Part shown: positions 8,220 through 62,314 of the stretch, piece by piece
Layout of the letters: each line of letters opens with the position of its first letter
Numbering within the stretch: position 1 is the first letter of the stretch
Source: an uncultured Bacteroidia bacterium
GTDB lineage: Bacteria; Bacteroidota; Bacteroidia; J057; CALLMJ01
DNA length: 64,000 nt
Direction of reading: 5' to 3'
Assembly: GCA_964493765.1 (NCBI GenBank)
Contig: CAZBPK010000022.1
Span: 9,958-73,957 of the forward strand
The notes under the pieces: model-generated
Database searches by the model: none
What the model was told of the DNA's origin: nothing
The model's input: the letters and a program-made list of their open reading frames with translations, nothing else
Position numbers and translations under genes: made by a program

Positions 8220-10918
8220 TTAAGGTTTAATAACAGTAATCCTAAAATCCATTCCCATATAATTTGTCAATGGAGCTCTATTGAATACAATGAATCGTAT
8301 TTCGTTTGTTCTTGCTTCAACGTGTTCAATAACAACGCTAGGCGCTGTGCCCCAGTCTCCAACTAAATTAACAAATACCGCATCGGTAGACTGAAGCCCT
8401 GGCAAAAACCCAGTAATAGTGTAACGAGTGTTTGCGTTAATATTGGTAGGTGGATAATACCAAAGACTAATATTTTGGTTTACTGTTTTTATCCATCTTG
8501 TTCCATTCCAGTAATAGTATCCAGGAGATACATCATTGGGATAGGTGCCTGAAGTAGCAGTATTATAAACAATTAATCCTGTTGCGGGAGCAGTTACAGG
8601 AGCAGGGTTGTTGGAAGCTATTAAACTCACTCTGGGAGCTAAGAATCCTTTATTTGTAGAACTTACATCTAAAATCGCAGAAGCATCAGGAGTTCCTGTT
8701 CCAATACCTACATTACCATTAGAAGCAATACGCATTCTTTCTGCTCCATTAGTAGAAAAGCCTAATTCATCAATAGAAGCTCTAAATAAGCCTATATCAG
8801 AATCAGATTCCCAAGAATAAAAAGGGGCATTTGCAGTACCATTCGCTAAACCAAACACTTGATTTCCATTAGCAATACGGAATCGAGCTGTGTTGTTGGT
8901 TCTAAAAGTGAGTGGTTGTGCATCGGTTGTACCCACAAAGTTTACAGCTGCATCAGTACCAGCGTTTCCAAGTAACGCCCAATCATTTCCTGCACCATCT
9001 GTTAATCTTACCCATTCTGTGCCATTCCAATAATAATAACCGGGAGTTACTGCATTGATACCAGTCCCTGCAGTTGCTGTATTATAAACCAATAAGCTAT
9101 TGACGATACTCGCCCCAATAGGTGCGTTATTATTTCTTGCCACTAGGGCTACATTAGGGATTCTTACTCCTCTGTTATTGGCATTGACATCCAAAATAGC
9201 TGCATTAGATGGGGTTGTGTTGATACCTACATTACCTCCTGAAGTAACACGCATTTTCTCAGTATTATTAGTTCTTGTTACAAAGTCTTGGTTATCGGTG
9301 GTACCAATAAAATTGACGTTGGGGTCAGTACCTGCATTTCCTAGTAAAGTCCAATCGTTTGTAACATTGTCTATAAGTCTTACCCACTCTGTACCATTCC
9401 AATAATAATAGCCCGGAGTAACAGCATTCGCACCAGTCCCAGCAGTTGCTGTATTATACACTAATAAGCTATTAACGATACCTGCCCCAATAGGAGCGTT
9501 GTTATTTCTTGCCACTAGTGAACATTAGGTATTCTAATTCCTCTGTTGTTTGCATTGACATCCAAAATAGCTGCATTAGATGGGGTTGTGTTGATACCCA
9601 CATTGCCGCCAGAAGTTACACGCATTTTCTCAGTATTATTAGTTCTTGTTACAAAGTCTTGGTTATCGGTGGTACCTATAAAATTGACGTTGGGGTCAGT
9701 ACCTGCATTTCCTAGTAAAGTCCAATCGTTTGTAACATTGTCTATGAGTCTTACCCACTCTGTACCATTCCAATAATAATAGCCCGGAGTTACTGCATTG
9801 ATACCAGTCCCTGCAGTTGCTGTATTATACACTAATAAGCTATTAACGATACCTGCCCCAATAGGAGCGTTGTTATTTCTTGCCACTAGTGCAACATTAG
9901 GTATTCTAATTCCTTTGTTGTTTGCATTGACATCCAAAATAGCTGCATTAGATGGGGTTGTATTGATACCCACATTACCACCAGAAGTAACACGCATTTG
10001 TTACGTATTATTAGTTAGTGTTACGAAGTCTTGGTTATCGGTGGTACCAGTAAAATTGACGTTGGGGTCAGTACCTTCATTTCCTAGTAAAGTCCAATCG
10101 TTTGTAACAGTGTCTATAAGTCGTACCCACTCTGTACCAGTCCAATAATAATGGCCCGGAGTAACAGCATTCGCACCAGTCGCAGCAGTTGCTGTATTAT
10201 ACACTAATAAGCTATTGACGATACCTGCCCCAATAGGAGCGTTGTTATTTCTTGCCACTAGTGCAACATTAGGGATTCTAATTCCTCTGTTGTTTGCATT
10301 GACATCCAAAATAGCTGCATTAGATGGGGTTGTGTTGATACCCACATTGCCACCAGAAGTTACACGAACTCTTTCTGTACCACTTGTAGAAAGCCCAAGT
10401 TCATCTGCACCAGGATTAAATAAACCTGTATTAGCATCATTTTCCCAAGAATAAAAAGGAGCAGTTGCAGAGCCTCCGTTTAAACCAAACACTTGATTTC
10501 CATTAGCAATACGGAATCTAGCTGTGTTGTTGGTTCTAAAAGTTAATGCTTGTGCATCTGTTGTACCTACAAAATTATTATTGGAATTAGTTCCTAAATT
10601 TCCATTTATAAACCAAGCATCAGTAGCACCTCCAGCAGAAATACTCACCCATTTTGTTCCATCCCAATAATAAAATCCAGGAATTACATCATTTATTGTA
10701 GCTTGATTATAAACTAATAAACTCACCGCAGGGTTGGTAACAGGTGCAGGGTTAGTCGTAGCCACTAAATTTACACGAGGAATTAATACTCCTTTATCAG
10801 TGGAGACTACATCTAAACGTGCAGAAGCATCAGGGTTCAAAGTACCTATACCTACGCCTTGATTTTGAGCAAAAACTAACGAACTGCAAAATACGAATAG
10901 TATTAAACTTTTTTTCAT
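8220..10918 (-). pseudogene. Repetitive surface/tail-fibre-like repeat protein gene, disrupted (or misassembled)
   Basis: Three consecutive ORFs (10001-10978, 9515-9997, 8220-9515) form one reading frame family. The signal peptide MKKSLILFVFCSSLVFAQ starts at ATG 10918. Repeated modules read GNVGI.T..P....LDV.....G...P...L......AP.G..V.SLLVYNT......PG.YYWNGTEW. There is an in-frame TAA at 10001-10003, where sister repeats read gag-aaa (TEK). One nt is missing between 9520 and 9521 (gtgaacatt versus gtgcaacatt in sister repeats). Confidence 0.75.
8975..10375 (-). repeat. Tandem array of about 3.8 near-identical units of 369-370 bp (123 codons) inside the repeat-protein gene
   Basis: The same string (ggagt.ac.gcatt...ccagtccc.gcagttgctgtattata.ac.aataagctatt.acgata...gccccaatagg.gcgtt.ttatttcttgccactag) recurs at about 9041, 9412, 9786 and 10156, with only scattered substitutions. 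Confidence 0.9.
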
Positions 10919-11053
10919 AACTATTGTGTTGCTATTTAAAGAATTTTCAAAAATAAATGTAGTTTCATTACAATGCAACTAAAATTTTATTTTTTTTTAA
11001 AAGAAATTTTCATCAATTGTGGATTCACTTTATTTTATTGTAAGATTTTATCA

Positions 11054-11184
11054 TTTGGGCGTTCCCCTCACTACATTCGGGTCGGGCTGGCTACGGGTTT
11101 CACTTCGTTTCAGCAATCCTTTTTCCACTTTTTTCAAAAGTAGAAAAAGGCAGTGCCACTTCGTGCCCTTCGCATCCCTAACGC
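11054..11184 (+). repeat. GC-rich REP/MITE-like intergenic repeat, copy 2
   Basis: tttgggcgttcccctcactacattcgggtcgggctggctacgggtttcacttcgtttcagcaatcctttttccacttttttcaaaagtagaaaaaggcagtgccacttcgtgcccttcgcatccctaacgc. Confidence 0.9.
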
Positions 11185-11210
11185 TTACTTACCATTACTG
11201 CCTCTTTCTT

Positions 11211-26349: not shown

Positions 26350-28089
26350 TTACTTTGCTCTCAAAATACCTGCACTTTCAAATGGCTTAAATAAACGATT
26401 TTTTAGTTCATCTTCCGTAAATTCATGAGGTTTTATGCTTACATCACGATTTCTTTGAGCTTTTTCTGTATGAAGTTCTTGAATTAAGGATTTGAAGTGG
26501 GTTTGCATTGCGGGTAAAGTATATTTTCCATATAAAGTACTAGAACCTTCATAATGTTGTAAAGCATACTCTTCAGGTGTAGCAGTATAAGAAGCATAAG
26601 CATTAGAATATCCCGCTACAATTACTTCTTTAATTCCTTTTAATGAATTTTTAATTTGCCTTTGAATTCTTAAGCCAGAGGTTGTTGTTAATTCTGTTGG
26701 AGCAGCAGCAATAGCAATATTTCCAATTTTGATAATTTGAAACGGTAAAATATCGGGTACTAATGGTTGAGATGCTTCATGAATTTCTCCTAAAACGGAT
26801 AATCTTTTAAGTTCTGCAATAAATGGGTCAATGAAATCAGGTATTGGGAGTTTATGAAAGGCTCTTGTGCCTCCAAATTCTCCTTTTCTACAATTTATCA
26901 ATACCACTTTTTCTACTTGTGCTTTAGATAAATTTTCATAATAAGGATTTCTTTTGAGCAGCTTTTGGTTTCTTTTAGAAACAAAATTTGAAAGTAAACG
27001 TATCCAAAAAGGAGGTATTCCCAAGCCTTCAGCAGTGCCTCCAACAAAATACATTCCAAAACAAGGGTCTCCTGTTGTTAATCCTTCCATTCCCCCCACA
27101 AATTCAGGATCTACTTGGGATTGAGTCATATCAAAATAATCCAAAGCATAATCTAATTCATAAGGCAAAGAAACTGTAGATTTCGCATAATAAATTAACT
27201 GTTGAGCTTTCTCCATTTGGTAAGTACCATTAATTTTACGATTGATATAATCATCGGTGGTTTCTCCTCTTTTTTCTTTTTCTCCTTTATGAATTATAAA
27301 ATTTGGGCTTACATCTCCTGCAGCTCCTTGAGCAAAAATAGCCACAAAATGAGGGTTTTGTATTCTCATTAAATTTTCTAATTGATGGGCTGCATAACCT
27401 TTATTATCAGAACTTATAGTCTTTTTATCGGAATGAACCGTTGTAGTATGAACAGCAAAAAAGTTTAATATACCCATTGGAATTAACTGTTCATTCAAAA
27501 AAGTAAGCTGATATGCATTACGATCTAAAGCTAAATGCCGATGTTGTTCATCCAATTTTTCATTTTCAGGATTTTGATTCCATGCTTCAATTGCTCTATT
27601 AAATGCGACATTAATATGGGGTTCAAATTCAGATTTTCCATAATAAATAAAAGCTTTTTCTTTGTTTTTATCGGCTTCAATGATTCCTTCAATGATACCA
27701 TTTACATAAGTTTCCGTAACTTCTTTAGAGTAACCGGGTATGGTTAAATTGTAAAGTAAATAATGAGAATTACCACCAGGGGAGCTGTGTGTATGCGTAG
27801 CCATAAGCATTACATTTTTTTCATCAAACCCTAAATGAGAGTAAGACTTTTTGAGCTTTTTTAAAACCATCTGCCTCATGGCTAAGGTCATAGTTGCGGT
27901 TTCTGTAACCACTATCGCTACTTTTTGATGATCATGTTCAATTACAACAACTCTTGCAAACAAATTGGATTCAACATCTTCTACTACGTTTCCGGGTTTA
28001 CACCAGCCCATCATTCCTATTCCCTTCAAAAATGCGGTTATATCTTTTTTGGAAAATCCTACTAAATACATACATGCAAATAAATTCAT
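26350..28089 (-). CDS. Neutral/alkaline ceramidase-like hydrolase
   Basis: VGFSKKDITAFLKGIGMMGW...NLFARVVVIE...VAIVVTE and MATHTHSSPGG resemble the N-terminal domain of neutral ceramidases. The track start (28167) lies inside repeat copy 3, so ATG 28089 or 28071 is preferred. Confidence 0.6.
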   Translation of the reverse strand: MNLFACMYLVGFSKKDITAFLKGIGMMGWCKPGNVVEDVESNLFARVVVIEHDHQKVAIVVTETATMTLAMRQMVLKKLKKSYSHLGFDEKNVMLMATHTHSSPGGNSHYLLYNLTIPGYSKEVTETYVNGIIEGIIEADKNKEKAFIYYGKSEFEPHINVAFNRAIEAWNQNPENEKLDEQHRHLALDRNAYQLTFLNEQLIPMGILNFFAVHTTTVHSDKKTISSDNKGYAAHQLENLMRIQNPHFVAIFAQGAAGDVSPNFIIHKGEKEKRGETTDDYINRKINGTYQMEKAQQLIYYAKSTVSLPYELDYALDYFDMTQSQVDPEFVGGMEGLTTGDPCFGMYFVGGTAEGLGIPPFWIRLLSNFVSKRNQKLLKRNPYYENLSKAQVEKVVLINCRKGEFGGTRAFHKLPIPDFIDPFIAELKRLSVLGEIHEASQPLVPDILPFQIIKIGNIAIAAAPTELTTTSGLRIQRQIKNSLKGIKEVIVAGYSNAYASYTATPEEYALQHYEGSSTLYGKYTLPAMQTHFKSLIQELHTEKAQRNRDVSIKPHEFTEDELKNRLFKPFESAGILRAK

Positions 28090-28150
28090 GCAAATATAAT
28101 AAAATTTCAAAATAAATTGAAAACAAAACAGAAATAATTGAATTAGACTT

Positions 28151-28252
28151 TTTCGGGCATGCCCCATGCTATGCTGCGGGTCGGGCTGCTATGGGTTTCA
28201 CTTCGTTTCAGAAATCCTTTTTCCACTTTTTTCAAAAGTGCATCCCTCACGC
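28151..28252 (+). repeat. GC-rich REP/MITE-like intergenic repeat, copy 3 (about 29-bp internal deletion)
   Basis: tttcgggcatgccccatgctatgctgcgggtcgggctgctatgggtttcacttcgtttcagaaatcctttttccacttttttcaaaagtgcatccctcacgc. It contains the perfect hairpin CACTTTT-ttc-AAAAGTG. Confidence 0.9.
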
Positions 28253-28383
28253 ATATATTAAAGCTAAGCTTTGTTCTTTTATAAAAAATGAAATAAAAGC
28301 GAACTTTAGTTCATTTATCTAAGATATTGGTAGCGGTATTAAAAAAACAACATTGCAACAACCCTAAATGTAGTAAAATAAAC

Positions 28384-28391
28384 TAAATTTG
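28384..28391 (+). promoter_or_regulatory. Putative -7 promoter box for the ATPase/nuclease-like cassette
   Basis: TAAATTTG is a perfect match to the Bacteroidota TAnnTTTG -7 consensus, 20 nt upstream of ATG 28412. No convincing -33 TTTG lies at canonical spacing. Confidence 0.35.
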
Positions 28392-28411
28392 TAATCTGAA
28401 ATAAAAGTAAA

Positions 28412-29485
28412 ATGATAAGCTCAATTACTATAAAGAATTTTATGGCTCATTCGGAATTAAGCTTAAAAGACATTCCTTCTATCAATGTGATAATTGGAAA
28501 GAACGATACAGGTAAGACAGGATTACTCAAACTTTTATATGCAACTGTTAAATCATTAGAGGTTTATAGTCTTAAATCAAAACAATCAGATGTAATGTTT
28601 AAGAAAGAACTTTCAGACAAGCTTCTTGACACATTTATGCCACGTAAAAATGGACTTGGCGACTTGGTTCAAAAGGGTAGTAAAGAAAAACTTGAAGTAA
28701 ATATTACAATAGTTGGAAACAATGGAAGATATAAGCAGACTATCTACTTCTCATTTGGAGAGAGAACAGAGAAATCAATTTCTACTTGCATTGAACACGT
28801 AGAACCATTTGCAAATAGTTCAATCAATACATTATTTATTCCAGCTAAAGAAGTTTTAACCGCTTTTACTGACATCAGAAATATTAGAGAGAATTTTTAT
28901 GGTGTCGGATTTGATGACACATATTTAGACTTAATCAAGGCTCTCAGCTTGGAAACAACAAAAGGGCGTGTTGCAACTGAACTTAGCCAAGTAAACAAGT
29001 CACTTGAAGACTTATTTGAAGGAAAGATTGAACAAACAGGGCAAAAAGAACAACCCTTCATTTTTAAGAAAGGCAATCAACAATTTGCAATGCAACAGAC
29101 AGCAGAAGGGATTAAAAAAATTGGAATTCTAACGACTCTAATAACCAATCGTCAATTAGGGAGAGGAACAATTCTATTTATGGACGAGCCTGAAACTGCA
29201 TTACACCCAGATGCAGTAAGACAAATGGTTGAAATGCTTGTTGCAATGAGTAAAGCGGGTGTTCAAATTTTTCTAGCCACACATAGCTATTTTGTTATAA
29301 AACAGCTTTCTAACTGTGCAAAAAGAGACGATTTAAATATTTATTGTTGGAATTTAAAAAGAGAAATGGGAAAACCCGTAAGCAACTCTTTTCACAACTT
29401 AATTGATGGAGTTTTACCTTCCAATTCAATTATTGATGAAGCAATTAAAATGTATGATGAAGAAATTAGTATTGACCTAAAATAG
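28412..29485 (+). CDS. Stand-alone ABC/SMC-type ATPase (AAA_21/AAA_15-like)
   Basis: 357 aa. Walker A G29-KNDT-G34-K35-T36, signature-like QQTAEGIKK (about residues 228-236), Walker B/D-loop ILFMDEPETALHP (D258-E259), H-loop LATHS (H291). No fused effector domain. Confidence 0.85.
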   Translation: MISSITIKNFMAHSELSLKDIPSINVIIGKNDTGKTGLLKLLYATVKSLEVYSLKSKQSDVMFKKELSDKLLDTFMPRKNGLGDLVQKGSKEKLEVNITIVGNNGRYKQTIYFSFGERTEKSISTCIEHVEPFANSSINTLFIPAKEVLTAFTDIRNIRENFYGVGFDDTYLDLIKALSLETTKGRVATELSQVNKSLEDLFEGKIEQTGQKEQPFIFKKGNQQFAMQQTAEGIKKIGILTTLITNRQLGRGTILFMDEPETALHPDAVRQMVEMLVAMSKAGVQIFLATHSYFVIKQLSNCAKRDDLNIYCWNLKREMGKPVSNSFHNLIDGVLPSNSIIDEAIKMYDEEISIDLK

Positions 29486-29493
29486 TTTTTGAT

Positions 29494-30042
29494 ATGCAGA
29501 TTACTGAAAGCTCAATAACATTAAATTTTCCCGACAACAACTACTTTAGGTTATGTGATTGTAAGGGCTATAAAGATATTCAAAATAATCTCGCTGAAAT
29601 GGATGTTTGTTGGTATGACCAAACAAGCGATACACTCTATATCATTGAATTGAAAAATTGGGAGAATAATACTCTTGTTGAAGAGATTGACCCGAATTAT
29701 ACACCTAACGAGATTCAAAAAATAAAAACTAAAATTTCAAATTATAGAATAGATAATCTTCTAAAAAAGTCTGTTGATACGACTTGTATGTTTATGTCAA
29801 TTTTACTCGGTAAGAAAAACGGCAATAAGATTCAACAATGTTCGCCTTTTACAATCTCAAATAATACTACAATAAAGCTTTTATCAATTATTAATTGGAC
29901 AAGCATTGATAGCTCATACATTTCAAATATAAACACCCAATACAAATCAAAATTTAATTCATACGCAAAGTTGTTTGATATAAAAACATTTTTGGTTTTA
30001 CCTAAGGACAAAGCTACTCAATTATTCACTTGGGTAAGCTGA
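29494..30042 (+). CDS. Small hypothetical protein with a PD-(D/E)xK-like nuclease motif
   Basis: 182 aa, starting 8 nt after the ATPase stop. Contains E35-M-D37-VCWYDQTSDTLYII-E52-L-K54-NW (D37 codon 29602-29604, E52 29647-29649, K54 29653-29655), which is the D-x14-ExK spacing of the restriction-endonuclease fold. I did not recognise the rest. Confidence 0.45.
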   Translation: MQITESSITLNFPDNNYFRLCDCKGYKDIQNNLAEMDVCWYDQTSDTLYIIELKNWENNTLVEEIDPNYTPNEIQKIKTKISNYRIDNLLKKSVDTTCMFMSILLGKKNGNKIQQCSPFTISNNTTIKLLSIINWTSIDSSYISNINTQYKSKFNSYAKLFDIKTFLVLPKDKATQLFTWVS

Positions 30043-30316: not shown

Positions 30317-31186
30317 TTAATTTTTATTAATAAAATCGTAGATACGTTTAAAATAGTTCTCTTCACCAGCAATTTTATGAATATTATTATGCTTTGCATC
30401 TTTAACAATCCAAATTTCTGAAGGTTTTGCAGAAGCTTCATGGCATTTCACTGTTTCATATAATGGACAAACTTCGTCTTTTTCCGCCGCAATAAATAAA
30501 GTCGGTTTATCTAAATGGCTACAGGCACCTATGACATCTACCTGATTTAACCATAGACCCGTTATTAATTTTACCCATAATCTAACCCCTGGTATCATAA
30601 TTCTTGACCAACTTCCTAATTGTTTAGATACTGTCCAACGAATAATTAAATCTAAGTTTGTATAAGGACTCTGGAAAACAAAAGCATTAAACTTTTCTTT
30701 GATTTTCAATCCTGCTTGTGAACCAATGATACTTCCATAAGAAATACCAAACATGGATAATTTTTGAAAGGGTTTATTTTTCTCTAACCATTCTACCGTT
30801 TGAATAATATCTTGAATCTCATTTTTTCCATAAGTAATCCATTTTCCATCACTATCACCATGGGCTCTATGGTCTGGTAAAAGAACATTTATACCCATAT
30901 TTTGAAAAGCTTTAGCAAAGGGAATTAAATAGGGTTTACTTAAATGAATTCCATGTAACAATAGCAGTGTATGATTGGAATTTGCAGGAAAATACCAAGC
31001 ATTTAATTGAAAATTATGGTTTTTCCTTAACGAAATTTCTTCGTAGATTAAGTTAAGTTCTGATGGATGTTTATAGGCTGGAGGTTTCTGATTTTTATCT
31101 TGAGGTTTAATAATCTTTAATGCAATAACTAAAGAGAATATTGCATAAGCAATTAATAAAAAAGAAAAAATGATGAAATAAATCAT
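30317..31186 (-). CDS. Membrane-anchored alpha/beta hydrolase
   Basis: N-terminal TM MIYFIIFSFLLIAYAIFSLVIAL (ATG 31186; the track start is TTG). LLLLHGIH, nucleophile elbow FGISYGS, and a late D/H (AAEKDEV...AKHNN). Confidence 0.75.
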   Translation of the reverse strand: MIYFIIFSFLLIAYAIFSLVIALKIIKPQDKNQKPPAYKHPSELNLIYEEISLRKNHNFQLNAWYFPANSNHTLLLLHGIHLSKPYLIPFAKAFQNMGINVLLPDHRAHGDSDGKWITYGKNEIQDIIQTVEWLEKNKPFQKLSMFGISYGSIIGSQAGLKIKEKFNAFVFQSPYTNLDLIIRWTVSKQLGSWSRIMIPGVRLWVKLITGLWLNQVDVIGACSHLDKPTLFIAAEKDEVCPLYETVKCHEASAKPSEIWIVKDAKHNNIHKIAGEENYFKRIYDFINKN

Positions 31187-31360
31187 GGCGCAAAGTTGCA
31201 AAAGAATTGAAAATGATTTTATAAATTTGTAAAAAATCTTAGTAGTTTACATTAATAAAAAACGAATCATAATTTGAAATCTCACCAGATACTTACTTTG
31301 TAACTAATGTAACGGTTAAAGCTCAAAAACAAAACTATTTTTGTATTCCAAAAATAGAAA

Positions 31361-32412: not shown

Positions 32413-33930
32413 ATGTCATTAAAAAAATTGAATCAATTTATTTGGGCGTGTCCCTTCGCTAACGCTACGGGTCGGGCTGCTTCGGGTTTCACTTCGTTTC
32501 AGCAATCCTTTTCGCTTCGCTCAAAGGCAGTGCCAAGCCCTTCGCATCCCTCACGCTTATCCCTAAGCCTTGCTTTTCTCCTATTAATCCCCTTTTTACA
32601 TTCCAAAGCCCAAAATTCTCAAGACTCTTCCCTAAAACCACTTCTTTACTACTTCCAGAATGGTAAAACTTCTGGTTTATGGAGAAATCATTTTATGTAC
32701 ACCGATAACCAAAAGAACCTTATTGACTTCGGAGCTCTTGCCACAGGCTTAAATATCAACTACAAAACATTTACTCTCAAAAATTTTTCTTTCTCAGCAG
32801 GATTTTCTGCTGTTGGAAATGTTTGGCAACAAAATCTTTTAGCTCGTGACCCTCAAACTAATCAACCTTCTCGATATGAAATCGGCTTATATGATGTTGC
32901 TAATCCTAATAACTACAAAGCAGTTTTCTTACTTTCTGAATTAGCATTGAATTATTCTTATAAAAATTGGAAAGCTACTTTGGGTAAACAACTCATCAAA
33001 ACCACTTTTATCAATCCACAAGATGGTAGGATGGTGCCTACTTTGGTAGAAGGCTTGTACGTCCAAAAACAAGAAAAAAAATGGGATTTAGAGTTTGGAT
33101 ATTTATATAACATTGCACCGCGTGGAGTTTCTAAATGGTACTCCGTTGGGCAATCGATTGGCATTTATCCACAAGGAGTCCAAGAGAATAGTAAACCTTC
33201 ACAATACGCTGGGAATACTTTTTCCAATGGAATTGGCTTATTAGGCTATCAAAGAAACATTAGTAACTTTATGAAAATCAAAATCCACAATTTGTACGTG
33301 GATAATATCATGAATACCGCATTTTTGCAAACTGATTTTTTTAAAAATGATACTGCTCATCATTCTAAATGGAGTTTAAGCGGACAAATCATCAGGCAAG
33401 ATGGAGTTGGTAACGGTGGTAATATGGAGGTGAATAAAAGATATTTTATAAGAAACGGTAAAAGTTTAACTTTTGGTTGTCGTTTAGCTTGGGAAAATAC
33501 AAAGTGGAATGTTTCATTAAATTATAACAGAATTACTACCTTAGGAAGATTTTTAATTCCCCGAGAATGGGGCATAGAACCTTTTTTTACTTTTATTCCC
33601 CGTGAACGTTCCGATGGTTTTGGTGATGCTCACGCTTACGCTTTAAAAACAGTTTTCATTCCTCATAAATCCTTAAAACTTGGCTATCAATCTGCTTTTG
33701 TGCAATTACCCGATGTCAAAAATTATGCTTTAAATAAATACGGTATGCCTTCTTACTGGCAAAATAATTTAGAAATCCGCTTTTATCCAAATGCTATCTT
33801 TAAAAATTTAGAAGTCTTTGTTTTAATTGTACATAAGTATAACATTGGAGAAACTTATAACGAAAACCGATTCATTTTTAATCGTACCAATATGTTTCAG
33901 TGGAATTTGATTACCAATTATAGGTTTTAA
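32413..33930 (+). CDS. Outer-membrane beta-barrel (porin-like) protein with repeat copy 4 embedded in frame in its 5' end
   Basis: Alternating amphipathic strands and a C-terminal ...NLITNYRF. A signal-peptide-like LSLSLAFLLLIPFLHSKAQ follows the repeat. The only in-frame ATG (32413) lies upstream of the repeat. Starts 2 nt after the cytochrome c stop. Confidence 0.6.
   Translation: MSLKKLNQFIWACPFANATGRAASGFTSFQQSFSLRSKAVPSPSHPSRLSLSLAFLLLIPFLHSKAQNSQDSSLKPLLYYFQNGKTSGLWRNHFMYTDNQKNLIDFGALATGLNINYKTFTLKNFSFSAGFSAVGNVWQQNLLARDPQTNQPSRYEIGLYDVANPNNYKAVFLLSELALNYSYKNWKATLGKQLIKTTFINPQDGRMVPTLVEGLYVQKQEKKWDLEFGYLYNIAPRGVSKWYSVGQSIGIYPQGVQENSKPSQYAGNTFSNGIGLLGYQRNISNFMKIKIHNLYVDNIMNTAFLQTDFFKNDTAHHSKWSLSGQIIRQDGVGNGGNMEVNKRYFIRNGKSLTFGCRLAWENTKWNVSLNYNRITTLGRFLIPREWGIEPFFTFIPRERSDGFGDAHAYALKTVFIPHKSLKLGYQSAFVQLPDVKNYALNKYGMPSYWQNNLEIRFYPNAIFKNLEVFVLIVHKYNIGETYNENRFIFNRTNMFQWNLITNYRF
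32441..32556 (+). repeat. GC-rich REP/MITE-like repeat, copy 4 (short variant, inside an ORF)
   Basis: tttgggcgtgtcccttcgctaacgctacgggtcgggctgcttcgggtttcacttcgtttcagcaatccttttcgcttcgctcaaaggcagtgccaagcccttcgcatccctcacgc. Confidence 0.9.
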
Positions 33931-60567: not shown

Positions 60568-62040
60568 ATGGACTTTTGGAAATTTTTTACATATTCAACG
60601 GAGTACTTACCTACATTTACATCTGGCATTTTTGCCATTTTTTTTGTCTTTTTTTATTTGATTTGGTCTATTACTCAACACCAAATCAAATTAAGAAATA
60701 TTGTTTTATTGGTTTTTAGTTTATATATTTATTATAAACTAGCGAACGAATTTGTTCTCCTTTTAATATTATATGCTATAATTGATTATTTTATTGCCTT
60801 ACAAATTCATAAAGAAAAAAAGGATAGCCTCAAAAAACTTTTGCTTTATACAAGTATTATTGTAAATATTAGTATCTTGTTTGTTTTCAAATACTTAGGA
60901 TTTACTCTTCAAACTTGGAATCTTTGGACAGGTCAAGAGATTTTTATTCCGCAAATTATAGTACCTTTAGGAATTTCTTTTTGGATTTTCAGAAGTCTTT
61001 CTTATATTTTTGATGTTTACAATGAAATGATTGAAGAACCCGAAACCAATTATTTTCATTACCTACTCTATTTAAGCTACTTCCCAACCATTTTAGCAGG
61101 TCCTATTAGTAAAGCAGAACCTTTTTTGAAACAAATTAAAAATAATACCCAAGTGGACGACAAAATCATTAGTTTGGGTTATTGGTTAATCATTTGTGGA
61201 CTAGCAAAAAAAATAATTTTATCAGACCCAATGGGTTCTAATTTTGTTCAAAGAATTTTTGAAAATCCTGGTTTTTATACAGGTTTAGAATCACTATTGG
61301 CGGCTTTCGCTTATGGATTTTATTTATATTATGATTTTTCTGGTTATACCGATATGGCAATCGGAATGAGTTTGTTAGTAGGTATTCAAATTCCACAAAA
61401 TTTTAACGAACCCTTTAAATCTCAATCTATTACAGAATTTTGGAGACGTTGGCATATTACTTTATTTCAGTGGTTTAACGACTATGTTTTTACACCCTTA
61501 AATTTTTCATTAAGAAGTTGGGGTAAATCTGCTGCAATTTTTAGCATGATGGTAACATTTTTATTATCAGGGATTTGGCATGGAGCTAATTTTACATTTA
61601 TCGTTTGGGGGCTTTTACATGGAATTGCTATTAGCTATGAAATTGCAACTCAAAAATTTCGTATCACTTTAAAAAATTTCTGGGGTCCACATTTTCATAC
61701 CATTTTCAGCATTTTGATTACTTATACCTTTCTTACTTTTACATTTTTCTTTTTCAATTCCCCTTCATTGGAAAGCACTTTCAAAATGTTTGATAGAATC
61801 TTGAATGATTTTCATGCAGAATTATTTATGAAGTGGTACGATGAATACCAATTGGTAGCTCATATTTTGCTGGCTGGTATGATTTTACATTTTATTCCAA
61901 CCTCATGGAAACAATTTTTTGAATCACAATTTATAGTTTTACATTGGAGCTTAAAAATTGTGGTGATAGTGATAATGGTAATAGTGATTTATCAATTTAA
62001 AACCTTGGGTTCTATACCTTTTGTTTATTTACAGTTTTAG
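60568..62040 (+). CDS. MBOAT family membrane O-acyltransferase (AlgI/PatA/DltB-like)
   Basis: Multi-pass membrane protein with the conserved FWRRWHITL and the catalytic-His region SGIWHGANFTFIVWGLLHG. Starts 6 nt after the SGNH-LysM gene. Confidence 0.88.
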   Translation: MDFWKFFTYSTEYLPTFTSGIFAIFFVFFYLIWSITQHQIKLRNIVLLVFSLYIYYKLANEFVLLLILYAIIDYFIALQIHKEKKDSLKKLLLYTSIIVNISILFVFKYLGFTLQTWNLWTGQEIFIPQIIVPLGISFWIFRSLSYIFDVYNEMIEEPETNYFHYLLYLSYFPTILAGPISKAEPFLKQIKNNTQVDDKIISLGYWLIICGLAKKIILSDPMGSNFVQRIFENPGFYTGLESLLAAFAYGFYLYYDFSGYTDMAIGMSLLVGIQIPQNFNEPFKSQSITEFWRRWHITLFQWFNDYVFTPLNFSLRSWGKSAAIFSMMVTFLLSGIWHGANFTFIVWGLLHGIAISYEIATQKFRITLKNFWGPHFHTIFSILITYTFLTFTFFFFNSPSLESTFKMFDRILNDFHAELFMKWYDEYQLVAHILLAGMILHFIPTSWKQFFESQFIVLHWSLKIVVIVIMVIVIYQFKTLGSIPFVYLQF

Positions 62041-62045
62041 GTTCA

Positions 62046-62176
62046 TTTGGGCGTGCCCCTTGCTACGCTGCGGGTCGGGCTGCTACGGGTTCCACTTCGT
62101 TCCAGCAATCCTTTTTCCACTTTTTTCAAAAGCGTTAAAAGGCAGTGCCACTTCGTGCCCTTCGCATCCCTCACGC
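62046..62176 (+). repeat. GC-rich REP/MITE-like intergenic repeat, copy 5
   Basis: tttgggcgtgccccttgctacgctgcgggtcgggctgctacgggttccacttcgttccagcaatcctttttccacttttttcaaaagcgttaaaaggcagtgccacttcgtgcccttcgcatccctcacgc. Confidence 0.9.
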
Positions 62177-62314
62177 AAATCCCTCACTTTGTAAAGCATT
62201 GTCATATATTATCACAAAAATAAAACATATCAAGCGTTTATTGAAACAGTAATGACCTTGATTTCTAATACAAAGAGCAATTCTCTTGTACATTTTTACG
62301 AAATTCATAAAAAA

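Follow-up and report, generated by a model that had tools for sequence, protein, structure and literature searches.

A probable solitary HEC-02 anti-phage gene pair in an uncultured Bacteroidia bacterium

HEC-02, which stands for Hma-embedded candidate 02 (Hma being helicase-methylase-ATPase), is a two-gene anti-phage system and the closest described relative of a gene pair that we report here from an uncultured Bacteroidia bacterium. The pair lies in a stretch of 64,000 nucleotides (nt; positions 9,958 to 73,957 of contig CAZBPK010000022.1, assembly GCA_964493765.1), which was analysed as a whole and which we refer to as the window. HEC-02 was first seen as two genes lying inside Hma systems, and consists of an ATP-binding cassette (ABC) ATPase, HEC-02A, and a NERD-like PD-(D/E)xK protein with a (D/E/Q)xK motif, HEC-02B (Payne et al., bioRxiv 10.1101/2024.01.29.577857). 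The pair tested in that study came from Dickeya dianthicola NCPPB 3534 (WP_024108366.1 and WP_024108365.1; Table S2 of 10.1101/2024.01.29.577857). In Escherichia coli, this representative cut the plaquing of several coliphages by orders of magnitude, and both genes were needed (10.1101/2024.01.29.577857). When the same authors overlaid HEC-02B and a NERD model, the catalytic residues coincided; they also reported that HEC cassettes are widespread outside Hma and that most candidates are not enriched near defence systems (10.1101/2024.01.29.577857). Our literature search turned up the 2024 preprint and papers in which the system is listed, but no later name or mechanism for HEC-02.

The two genes of the window pair, here called ORF A and ORF B (ORF, open reading frame; coordinates in Table 1), resemble the Dickeya pair in order and orientation, with an ATPase of about 340-357 residues followed by a D...ExK protein of about 170-182 residues. 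Protein A matches the PADLOC-DB v2 model of HEC-02A, PDLC04214, along essentially its whole length (residues 1-355 on model positions 1-336 of 338; E=1.1e-106) and a second HEC-02A model, PDLC04213, at E=2.6e-76; the best non-HEC-02 model of PADLOC reaches 8.9e-23, and all of the unrelated ATPase models that come next (PDC-M38A, PD-T4-4_A, AriA, AbiLi, NsnB, Old and PtuA) lie at 1e-23 or worse. Similarly, protein B matches the HEC-02B model PDLC04224 (residues 4-173 on positions 5-167 of 182; E=3.2e-26) and three more HEC-02B models, and it matches no other PADLOC family. Direct comparison with the tested proteins gives the same picture. In BLASTP searches, A is 27% identical to Dickeya HEC-02A over 310 residues (E=7e-39), with the P-loop and the segments AEG(I/L)(K/R)K, DEPE(T/S) and (T/S)HS aligned, and B is 29% identical to Dickeya HEC-02B over its first 70 residues (E=4e-7). 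When a profile of 90 B relatives was compared with Dickeya HEC-02B using hhalign, the two aligned over 90 columns with a probability of 97.6% (E=2.8e-12), and D37, E52 and K54 of the window protein landed on MDV...IEVK of the Dickeya protein. An earlier note on this DNA, made from the letters alone, had proposed that the pair could be a new, uncharacterised system; the full-length matches show instead that it belongs to one already named and tested. The locus is thus an ordinary new copy of a known system, and we are fairly confident that it represents an intact, solitary copy of HEC-02 in identity and general function, and less so as regards mechanistic details.

Judged by its sequence, A is an ABC-type (not AAA+) ATPase whose Walker A, Walker B and H-loop are intact. 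The motifs that had been listed for A beforehand are all present and are deeply conserved: in 64 homologues, the tested Dickeya protein among them, residues G29, N31, D32, G34, K35, T36, E232, G233, D258, E259 and H291 are at least 95% conserved (E232-G233 being the EG of the signature-like segment), and D258-E259 pairs with DEPES and H291 with ASHS of Dickeya HEC-02A. A belongs to the Pfam families AAA_15 and AAA_21 (E=3e-20) and also matches SMC_N. In NCBIfam it obtains sub-threshold ABC-type matches only, the top one being the retron Eco8 OLD nuclease, which at 7.7e-18 lies below its cut-off. The nearest solved proteins by sequence, all of them remote, are PtuA, the retron Eco8 OLD nuclease, Rad50, UvrA and AriA. 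The structure model of A has a pLDDT (predicted local distance difference test) of 56, since the underlying alignment was too shallow (at least 73% identity), and it was used as a class-level check only; it resembles retron Eco8 OLD (top), PtuA, SMC/cohesin heads, RecN, GajA and Rad50. As a separate observation, a PADLOC-DB model labelled 'HEC-02B', PDLC04146, matches the ATPase A (E=2.3e-46, residues 1-307) rather than the small protein, and this label looks like an inconsistency in PADLOC-DB.

Protein B, as read from its residues, carries a (D/E/Q)xK phosphodiesterase signature, E52-L-K54, preceded by D37. These positions and E35 are invariant in 32 B homologues of 55-87% identity. For a deeper comparison, an exhaustive profile search of 1.84 billion representatives yielded 209 relatives of B, of which 90 (16-77% identical to the window protein, with a mean column identity of 20%) were used for conservation counts. 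The conservation expected by the earlier note was found: D37 is retained in 88 of the 90 and replaced by E in the other 2, E52 is likewise retained in 88 and replaced by D in 2, 83 sequences keep K54, and position 35 holds E or D in 85. Three further residues, E5, F18 and K92, are as conserved as the D/E/K motif. (P0121, the second-best match of the representative search, was rejected as a relative of B: the protein has 3,962 residues in about 60 tandem units of about 65 residues that contain 'EMDVVLYEQ...FVMEV', and its rank is a summed-score artefact.)

The AlphaFold2 model of B is of very high confidence (pLDDT 96.5; predicted template modelling score, pTM, 0.90). D37 opens the strand 38-42, E52-x-K54 lies in the neighbouring strand 47-57, and the strand pair is followed by a long helix, 71-104, which carries K92, and by more beta-alpha units. 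In this model, the topology fits the core of restriction-endonuclease-like enzymes. The weak lists returned for B by Foldseek consist mostly of PD-(D/E)xK enzymes (HamA, bunyavirus cap-snatching endonucleases, HincII, MunI, EcoRV, YaeQ, Mus81, FAN1, SduA, and RecE-like and RecU-like proteins). A B homologue from Belliella is named a 'Nuclease-related domain-containing' protein in UniRef.

The association between the two genes is strict. Our linkage set comprised 69 genomic loci that encode a B relative, together with the window's own contig. In all 70 loci, an A homologue lies directly upstream of B on the same strand. The spacer measures 5-53 nt in 69 of them, and in the remaining one (L070) the tblastn matches of the two genes overlap by 17 nt. 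This linkage persists where B is only 25-38% identical. The expectation that homologues of A and B would be linked elsewhere is therefore confirmed, and the architecture described by the earlier note, a bare SMC/OLD-type ABC ATPase tightly linked to a separate small D...ExK protein in a defence-type module, was right.

Furthermore, the cassette is horizontally mobile. Proteins with 88-94% identity occur in Cytophagales, Chitinophagales and Saprospirales, and more divergent ones are found in Bacteroidales, Chlorobiaceae, Ignavibacteria and one metagenome-assembled genome (MAG) of Hyphomicrobiales. The guanine plus cytosine (GC) content of the cassette does not stand out in the window (31.5% versus 32.8% for the window as a whole). 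In other genomes, it is 29-35% in 20 of 22 (39% and 42% in the remaining two) with flanks ranging from 33% to 52%, and the cassette is below its flanks in all 22 loci measured; in Arsenicibacter, for example, a cassette of 32% GC has flanks of 49%. The nearest neighbours across the 69 loci are heterogeneous, with no family found in more than 5 of 128 flanking ORFs. A constant low GC content across hosts, combined with varying neighbours, means that the cassette behaves as a horizontally mobile module. Together with the 88-94% identity of proteins from different orders of Bacteroidota, the low GC content points to recent horizontal spread. These data lend indirect support to the earlier suggestion that the pair is an autonomous insert; the repeat and the -7 box upstream of it, on which that suggestion had drawn, give it none (see below). 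No empty site was found: the ceramidase next to the cassette has three relatives from metagenomes, at 79-83% identity, and these share no synteny.

Some individual loci deserve mention in their own right. In most genomes measured, the GC content of the cassette stays near 32% even where that of the flanks is 47-52%, as seen in loci such as L002, L005 and L015 (cassette at about 8900-10550). A copy with 81-86% identity sits on a contig of 1.85 kb (L008) that was binned as Desulfosporosinus, probably in error. In three Chlorobiaceae MAGs (L046, 2866-10483; L047, 2936-10477; L065, 2855-10357), a gene for a protein of about 1,640 residues with NACHT and FGE-sulfatase domains immediately precedes the HEC-02 pair on the same strand and is itself preceded in all three by an ORF of about 340 residues (in L046, a MoxR-type AAA_5 ATPase). 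It is possible that these three loci form an NLR (nucleotide-binding leucine-rich repeat)-like conflict-system neighbourhood. The 1,640-residue ORFs were also considered as the source of DRT matches, which was ruled out, the proteins being NACHT plus FGE-sulfatase.

Among other described defence systems, the cassette appears to share, by analogy, the design of an ATPase with a nuclease that is seen in Septu, PARIS and Gabija. Septu, including the effectors of retron I-A/Ec78, pairs a separate ABC ATPase, PtuA, with a small nuclease, PtuB, and among solved proteins PtuA is one of the nearest to A, both by sequence (E=4e-6, C-terminal third only) and by fold. However, PtuB is an HNH nuclease, and B has no HNH or PtuB match; moreover, the PADLOC PtuA model covers only residues 213-302 of A (2e-13), and the NCBIfam PtuA model reaches 30 bits against a cut-off of 500. 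In PARIS, the ABC ATPase AriA acts as a scaffold or sensor that controls a separate nuclease, AriB, and AriA models match the C-terminal half of A (4.5e-22). On the other hand, AriB is a DUF4435/Toprim protein, B matches no AriB model, and AriA in the PDB is remote from A (E=4.7e-3). Gabija GajA, OLD proteins and the retron Eco8 effector belong to the same ABC ATPase clade as A, but in those proteins a Toprim domain is fused to the ATPase, whereas A is a bare head of 357 residues without a Toprim match, its nuclease candidate is separate, and the Old and ATPase-Toprim models of PADLOC match A by the ATPase part only. Since the partner of A is neither an HNH nor a Toprim nuclease, the cassette falls outside Septu, PARIS and Gabija. 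AbiL is likewise a two-gene abortive-infection module led by an AAA_21-type ATPase of similar size, and AbiLi aligns along the whole of A (4.2e-21), but this score is far below that of HEC-02A and B matches no AbiLii model. For B, similarities are found in NERD, HamA (of Hachiman) and SduA (of Shedu), in which, as in the model of B, a strand pair like that of restriction endonucleases carries a D...(D/E/Q)xK motif. In Foldseek, the first match of B is HamA, below significance, and SduA is also listed; however, HamA partners a helicase and SduA acts alone, so that neither is paired with an ABC ATPase. Finally, the Dickeya pair itself differs from the window pair in its host, which is gammaproteobacterial rather than a low-GC member of Bacteroidota. 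The window copy is not in Hma, a setting that membership of the HEC-02 family does not require, and no Hma genes were found among the top neighbour families of the 69 other loci.

The features described above suggest a mechanism. The nucleotide-binding heads of HEC-02A would dimerise around ATP, and HEC-02A would most likely serve as an ATP-dependent sensor of infection and switch. HEC-02B would be a small, metal-dependent, NERD-like PD-(D/E)xK nuclease with D37, E52 and K54, probably together with E35, as its likely active site. Most likely, A restrains or activates B, and infection would change the state of A such that B is freed or activated; active B would then cut phage or host nucleic acid and stop the infection. 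We infer all of the following: the nuclease activity and its substrate, the trigger, a complex of A and B and its stoichiometry, and an outcome of either direct restriction or abortive infection.

Several observations weigh against the assignment of an anti-phage ATPase-nuclease system, or at least limit how far it can be taken. Phage protection is known only from the Dickeya pair in E. coli, to which the window pair is 27-29% identical, and the alignment of B with the Dickeya protein ends at around residue 95-100, leaving the C-terminal half unaligned. The mechanism of HEC-02 is unsolved, with the trigger and the role of ATP unknown according to Payne et al. (10.1101/2024.01.29.577857). With regard to fold, B has no Pfam match at E<=1 and no NCBIfam match. 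Foldseek found no significant neighbour in the PDB, where the best hit is HamA of Hachiman at E=0.46 and solved nucleases reach a TM (template modelling) score of at most 0.34, and none among the viral models of BFVD (best E=6e-3, TM at most 0.38). The NERD family of Pfam (PF08378) is touched by only 2 of the 90 B relatives (best E=0.005), with the window protein below threshold, and the profile of the 90 relatives retrieved nothing from the PDB sequences even at E<=10. Because neither a significant structural neighbour nor a Pfam match is available, the case for a nuclease fold in B is built on its motif, its topology and the structural comparison already published. A NERD-like PD-(D/E)xK fold is plausible but not independently proven.

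Genomic context also counts among these points. The window contains no PADLOC defence match in the five ORFs on each side of the cassette, bar a generic ABC transporter nucleotide-binding domain. In other genomes defence neighbours are rare, and most apparent ones are generic UvrD/RecD2 helicases or ABC domains, so the enrichment beside known defence genes that had been considered for the pair was not seen. Given the solitary setting and the rarity of defence neighbours, context lends little independent support to a role in defence. (Neighbours that match the PADLOC 'NERD+UvrD' model were considered as a source of real NERD domains and rejected, as they are ordinary UvrD/RecD2 helicases without NERD.)

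One variation on the HEC-02 assignment is that the clade from Bacteroidota and Chlorobi represents a functionally distinct subtype. The C-terminal half of B (about residues 100-182) is highly conserved in the clade without a detectable Dickeya counterpart, and the whole of B is without a significant structural neighbour, which is why we raise this idea; we hold it tentatively, and consider it rather unlikely. If it is true, the C-terminal half of B could set another substrate (e.g., RNA or tRNA, rather than DNA) or another coupling to the ATPase, and B would be a structurally new minimal PD-(D/E)xK effector.

The remaining explanations depart further from HEC-02 as described. The cassette could be a selfish addiction module resembling toxin-antitoxin (TA) systems, in which a toxic nuclease B is neutralised by A, the module stabilises itself or a mobile element, and phage defence is incidental or absent in the native host. 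The horizontal transfer of the cassette and its arrival among unrelated housekeeping genes would suit such a module, as would the Pfam label of AAA_21 ('putative AbiEii toxin, Type IV TA system') and the finding that most HEC candidates show no enrichment in the vicinity of defence systems (Payne et al., 10.1101/2024.01.29.577857). However, the tested homologue reduced plaquing by several phages by orders of magnitude and required both genes, and no integrase, transposase or plasmid genes are seen adjoining the cassette in the window. Abortive-infection defence and TA behaviour can, moreover, coexist. We therefore judge it improbable that the pair is mainly a selfish module.

A second possibility concerns B alone: its D/E/K residues could bind A or a ligand, with the toxic or protective activity of the system lying elsewhere, for example in ATP depletion by A or in the recruitment of a host factor. 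We consider this unlikely. A D-x14-ExK pattern placed on two neighbouring strands, with a helix after them, is the canonical arrangement of PD-(D/E)xK proteins, about 92-98% of the very divergent relatives retain the motif, with the rare changes at D37 and E52 being conservative D/E swaps, and the published NERD superposition matches the catalytic residues (Payne et al., 10.1101/2024.01.29.577857). What speaks for a non-catalytic B is the lack of a significant structural or Pfam match for the nuclease fold, and the equal conservation of E5, F18 and K92, which may form an interface.

It is still harder to see the pair as a housekeeping DNA repair or processing unit, in which a Rad50/RecF/RecN-like ATPase works with a nuclease in a manner analogous to SbcCD. 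By both sequence and fold, A weakly resembles Rad50, RecN, RecF, UvrA and SMC heads, and UvrD or RecD2 helicases are among the neighbours in some other genomes. On the other hand, a GC content below that of the flanks in 22 of 22 loci argues for horizontal transfer and not a core function, proteins up to 91-94% identical are found across Bacteroidota orders, the neighbours are not conserved, A at 357 residues has no Rad50/SMC coiled-coil insertion, and the tested homologue is a defence system. Such a role is very unlikely. Least probable of all is a new, unnamed defence system with a novel short PD-(D/E)xK protein as its effector: B indeed has no Pfam or NCBIfam match or significant structural neighbour, and the ATPase models of Septu, PARIS, Gabija and AbiL match A only partially or much more weakly, but the full-length HEC-02A and HEC-02B matches (E=1e-106 and 3e-26) and the significant homology to the Dickeya pair all contradict novelty, as does the length of the best B model, whose 182 positions equal the typical length in the clade, so that close relatives were probably in its training set.

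Having weighed these alternatives, we return to the probable HEC-02 cassette and its setting in the window. The layout given by the earlier note, comprising the coordinates of both ORFs, the gap between them and their orientation opposite to both flanking genes, was borne out. The stop codon of A (29483-29485) and the ATG of B (29494) leave a spacer of 8 nt on the same strand. Both flanking genes are on the minus strand, namely a ceramidase-like ORF (26350-28086/28167) and an alpha/beta hydrolase (30317-31201). The non-coding DNA 3' of B, previously put at about 270 bp, measures 274 nt, and scans for sigma-70 promoters and terminators gave nothing above background, with no terminator-like site found 3' of B. 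The start of A differs between public gene calls, which use either M1 (28412, 357 residues) or M11 (28442, 347 residues). Position 28412 is the better start, because alignments with the HEC-02A model and with the homologues begin at residue 1 and take in the conserved N-terminal strand 'I-x-I-K-N-F'. A protein identical to B is on record from a contig of a public sequencing run, with the same neighbours as in the window: alkaline ceramidase, aldehyde dehydrogenase, YebC, acetyl-CoA carboxylase carboxyltransferase and GldB on one side, and alpha/beta hydrolase and cytochrome c on the other.

Table 1. Features of the cassette assigned to HEC-02, in window coordinates
Feature	Position (nt)	Strand	Size or detail	Basis
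Candidate Bacteroidota-type -7 box TAAATTTG	28384-28391	+	ends 20 nt upstream of A's ATG	inferred from position only
ORF A: HEC-02A, stand-alone ABC (SMC/OLD/PtuA-type) ATPase	28412-29485	+	357 aa	PADLOC, Pfam, Dickeya homology
Walker A / P-loop of A	28496-28519	+	G29-KNDT-G34-K35-T36	conservation in 64 homologues
Walker B of A	29183-29188	+	D258-E259, then P260-E261...H265-P266 D-loop region	conservation; Dickeya alignment
H-loop of A	29282-29284	+	H291	conservation; Dickeya alignment
ORF B: HEC-02B, NERD-like PD-(D/E)xK candidate effector	29494-30042	+	182 aa	PADLOC, hhalign, AlphaFold2
Putative catalytic segment of B	29596-29655	+	E35-M-D37...E52-L-K54; two adjacent beta strands	conservation; model

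A repeat and a perfect -7 box had also been noticed upstream of A. Both are present, but neither singles out the cassette. The class of the box, TANNTTTG, occurs 113 times in the window, compared with 111 expected from shuffles, and is therefore not enriched; the TAAATTTG box is thus compatible with a promoter but is no evidence for one, and we dropped it as proof that the cassette has a promoter of its own. The repeat is likewise not specific to the cassette; the window holds five dispersed copies of it.

These copies belong to a relatively GC-rich repeat of about 135-150 nt, and all have one orientation (2651-2790, 11045-11185, 28143-28276, 32434-32580 and 62037-62177). The copy beside the cassette (28143-28276) is without about 30 nt that are present in the other copies. 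The repeat has no match in Rfam, and one compensatory pair and a positive covariation term give weak support to a conserved RNA structure. The N-terminal extensions of two ORFs, the ceramidase ORF at 26350-28167 (-) and the ORF at 32413-33930 (+), enter repeat copies, and the public gene call for the ceramidase has 579 residues as opposed to 605 for the ORF; the true start codons of both ORFs probably lie downstream of the first in-frame start. Elsewhere in the window, positions 8704-10620 (-) hold four to five tandem units of about 372 nt with 67-84% identity, which extend across three consecutive minus-strand ORFs, 8220-9515, 9515-9997 and 10001-10978. These units may encode a surface protein with repeat domains, which frameshifts or an assembly error have possibly split.

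The locus itself is not surprising, and its main gain is one of annotation: a solitary HEC-02 cassette among housekeeping genes, which PADLOC would call automatically. In addition, the linkage of the two genes in all 70 loci and the deep conservation of D37, E52 and K54 independently back the model of HEC-02 as an ATPase with a nuclease. With no solved structural relative of HEC-02B, the HEC-02 family remains an open target for mechanistic work. In Bacteroidota and Chlorobi, which are distant from the enterobacterial host used for its validation, the cassette is common and moves horizontally.

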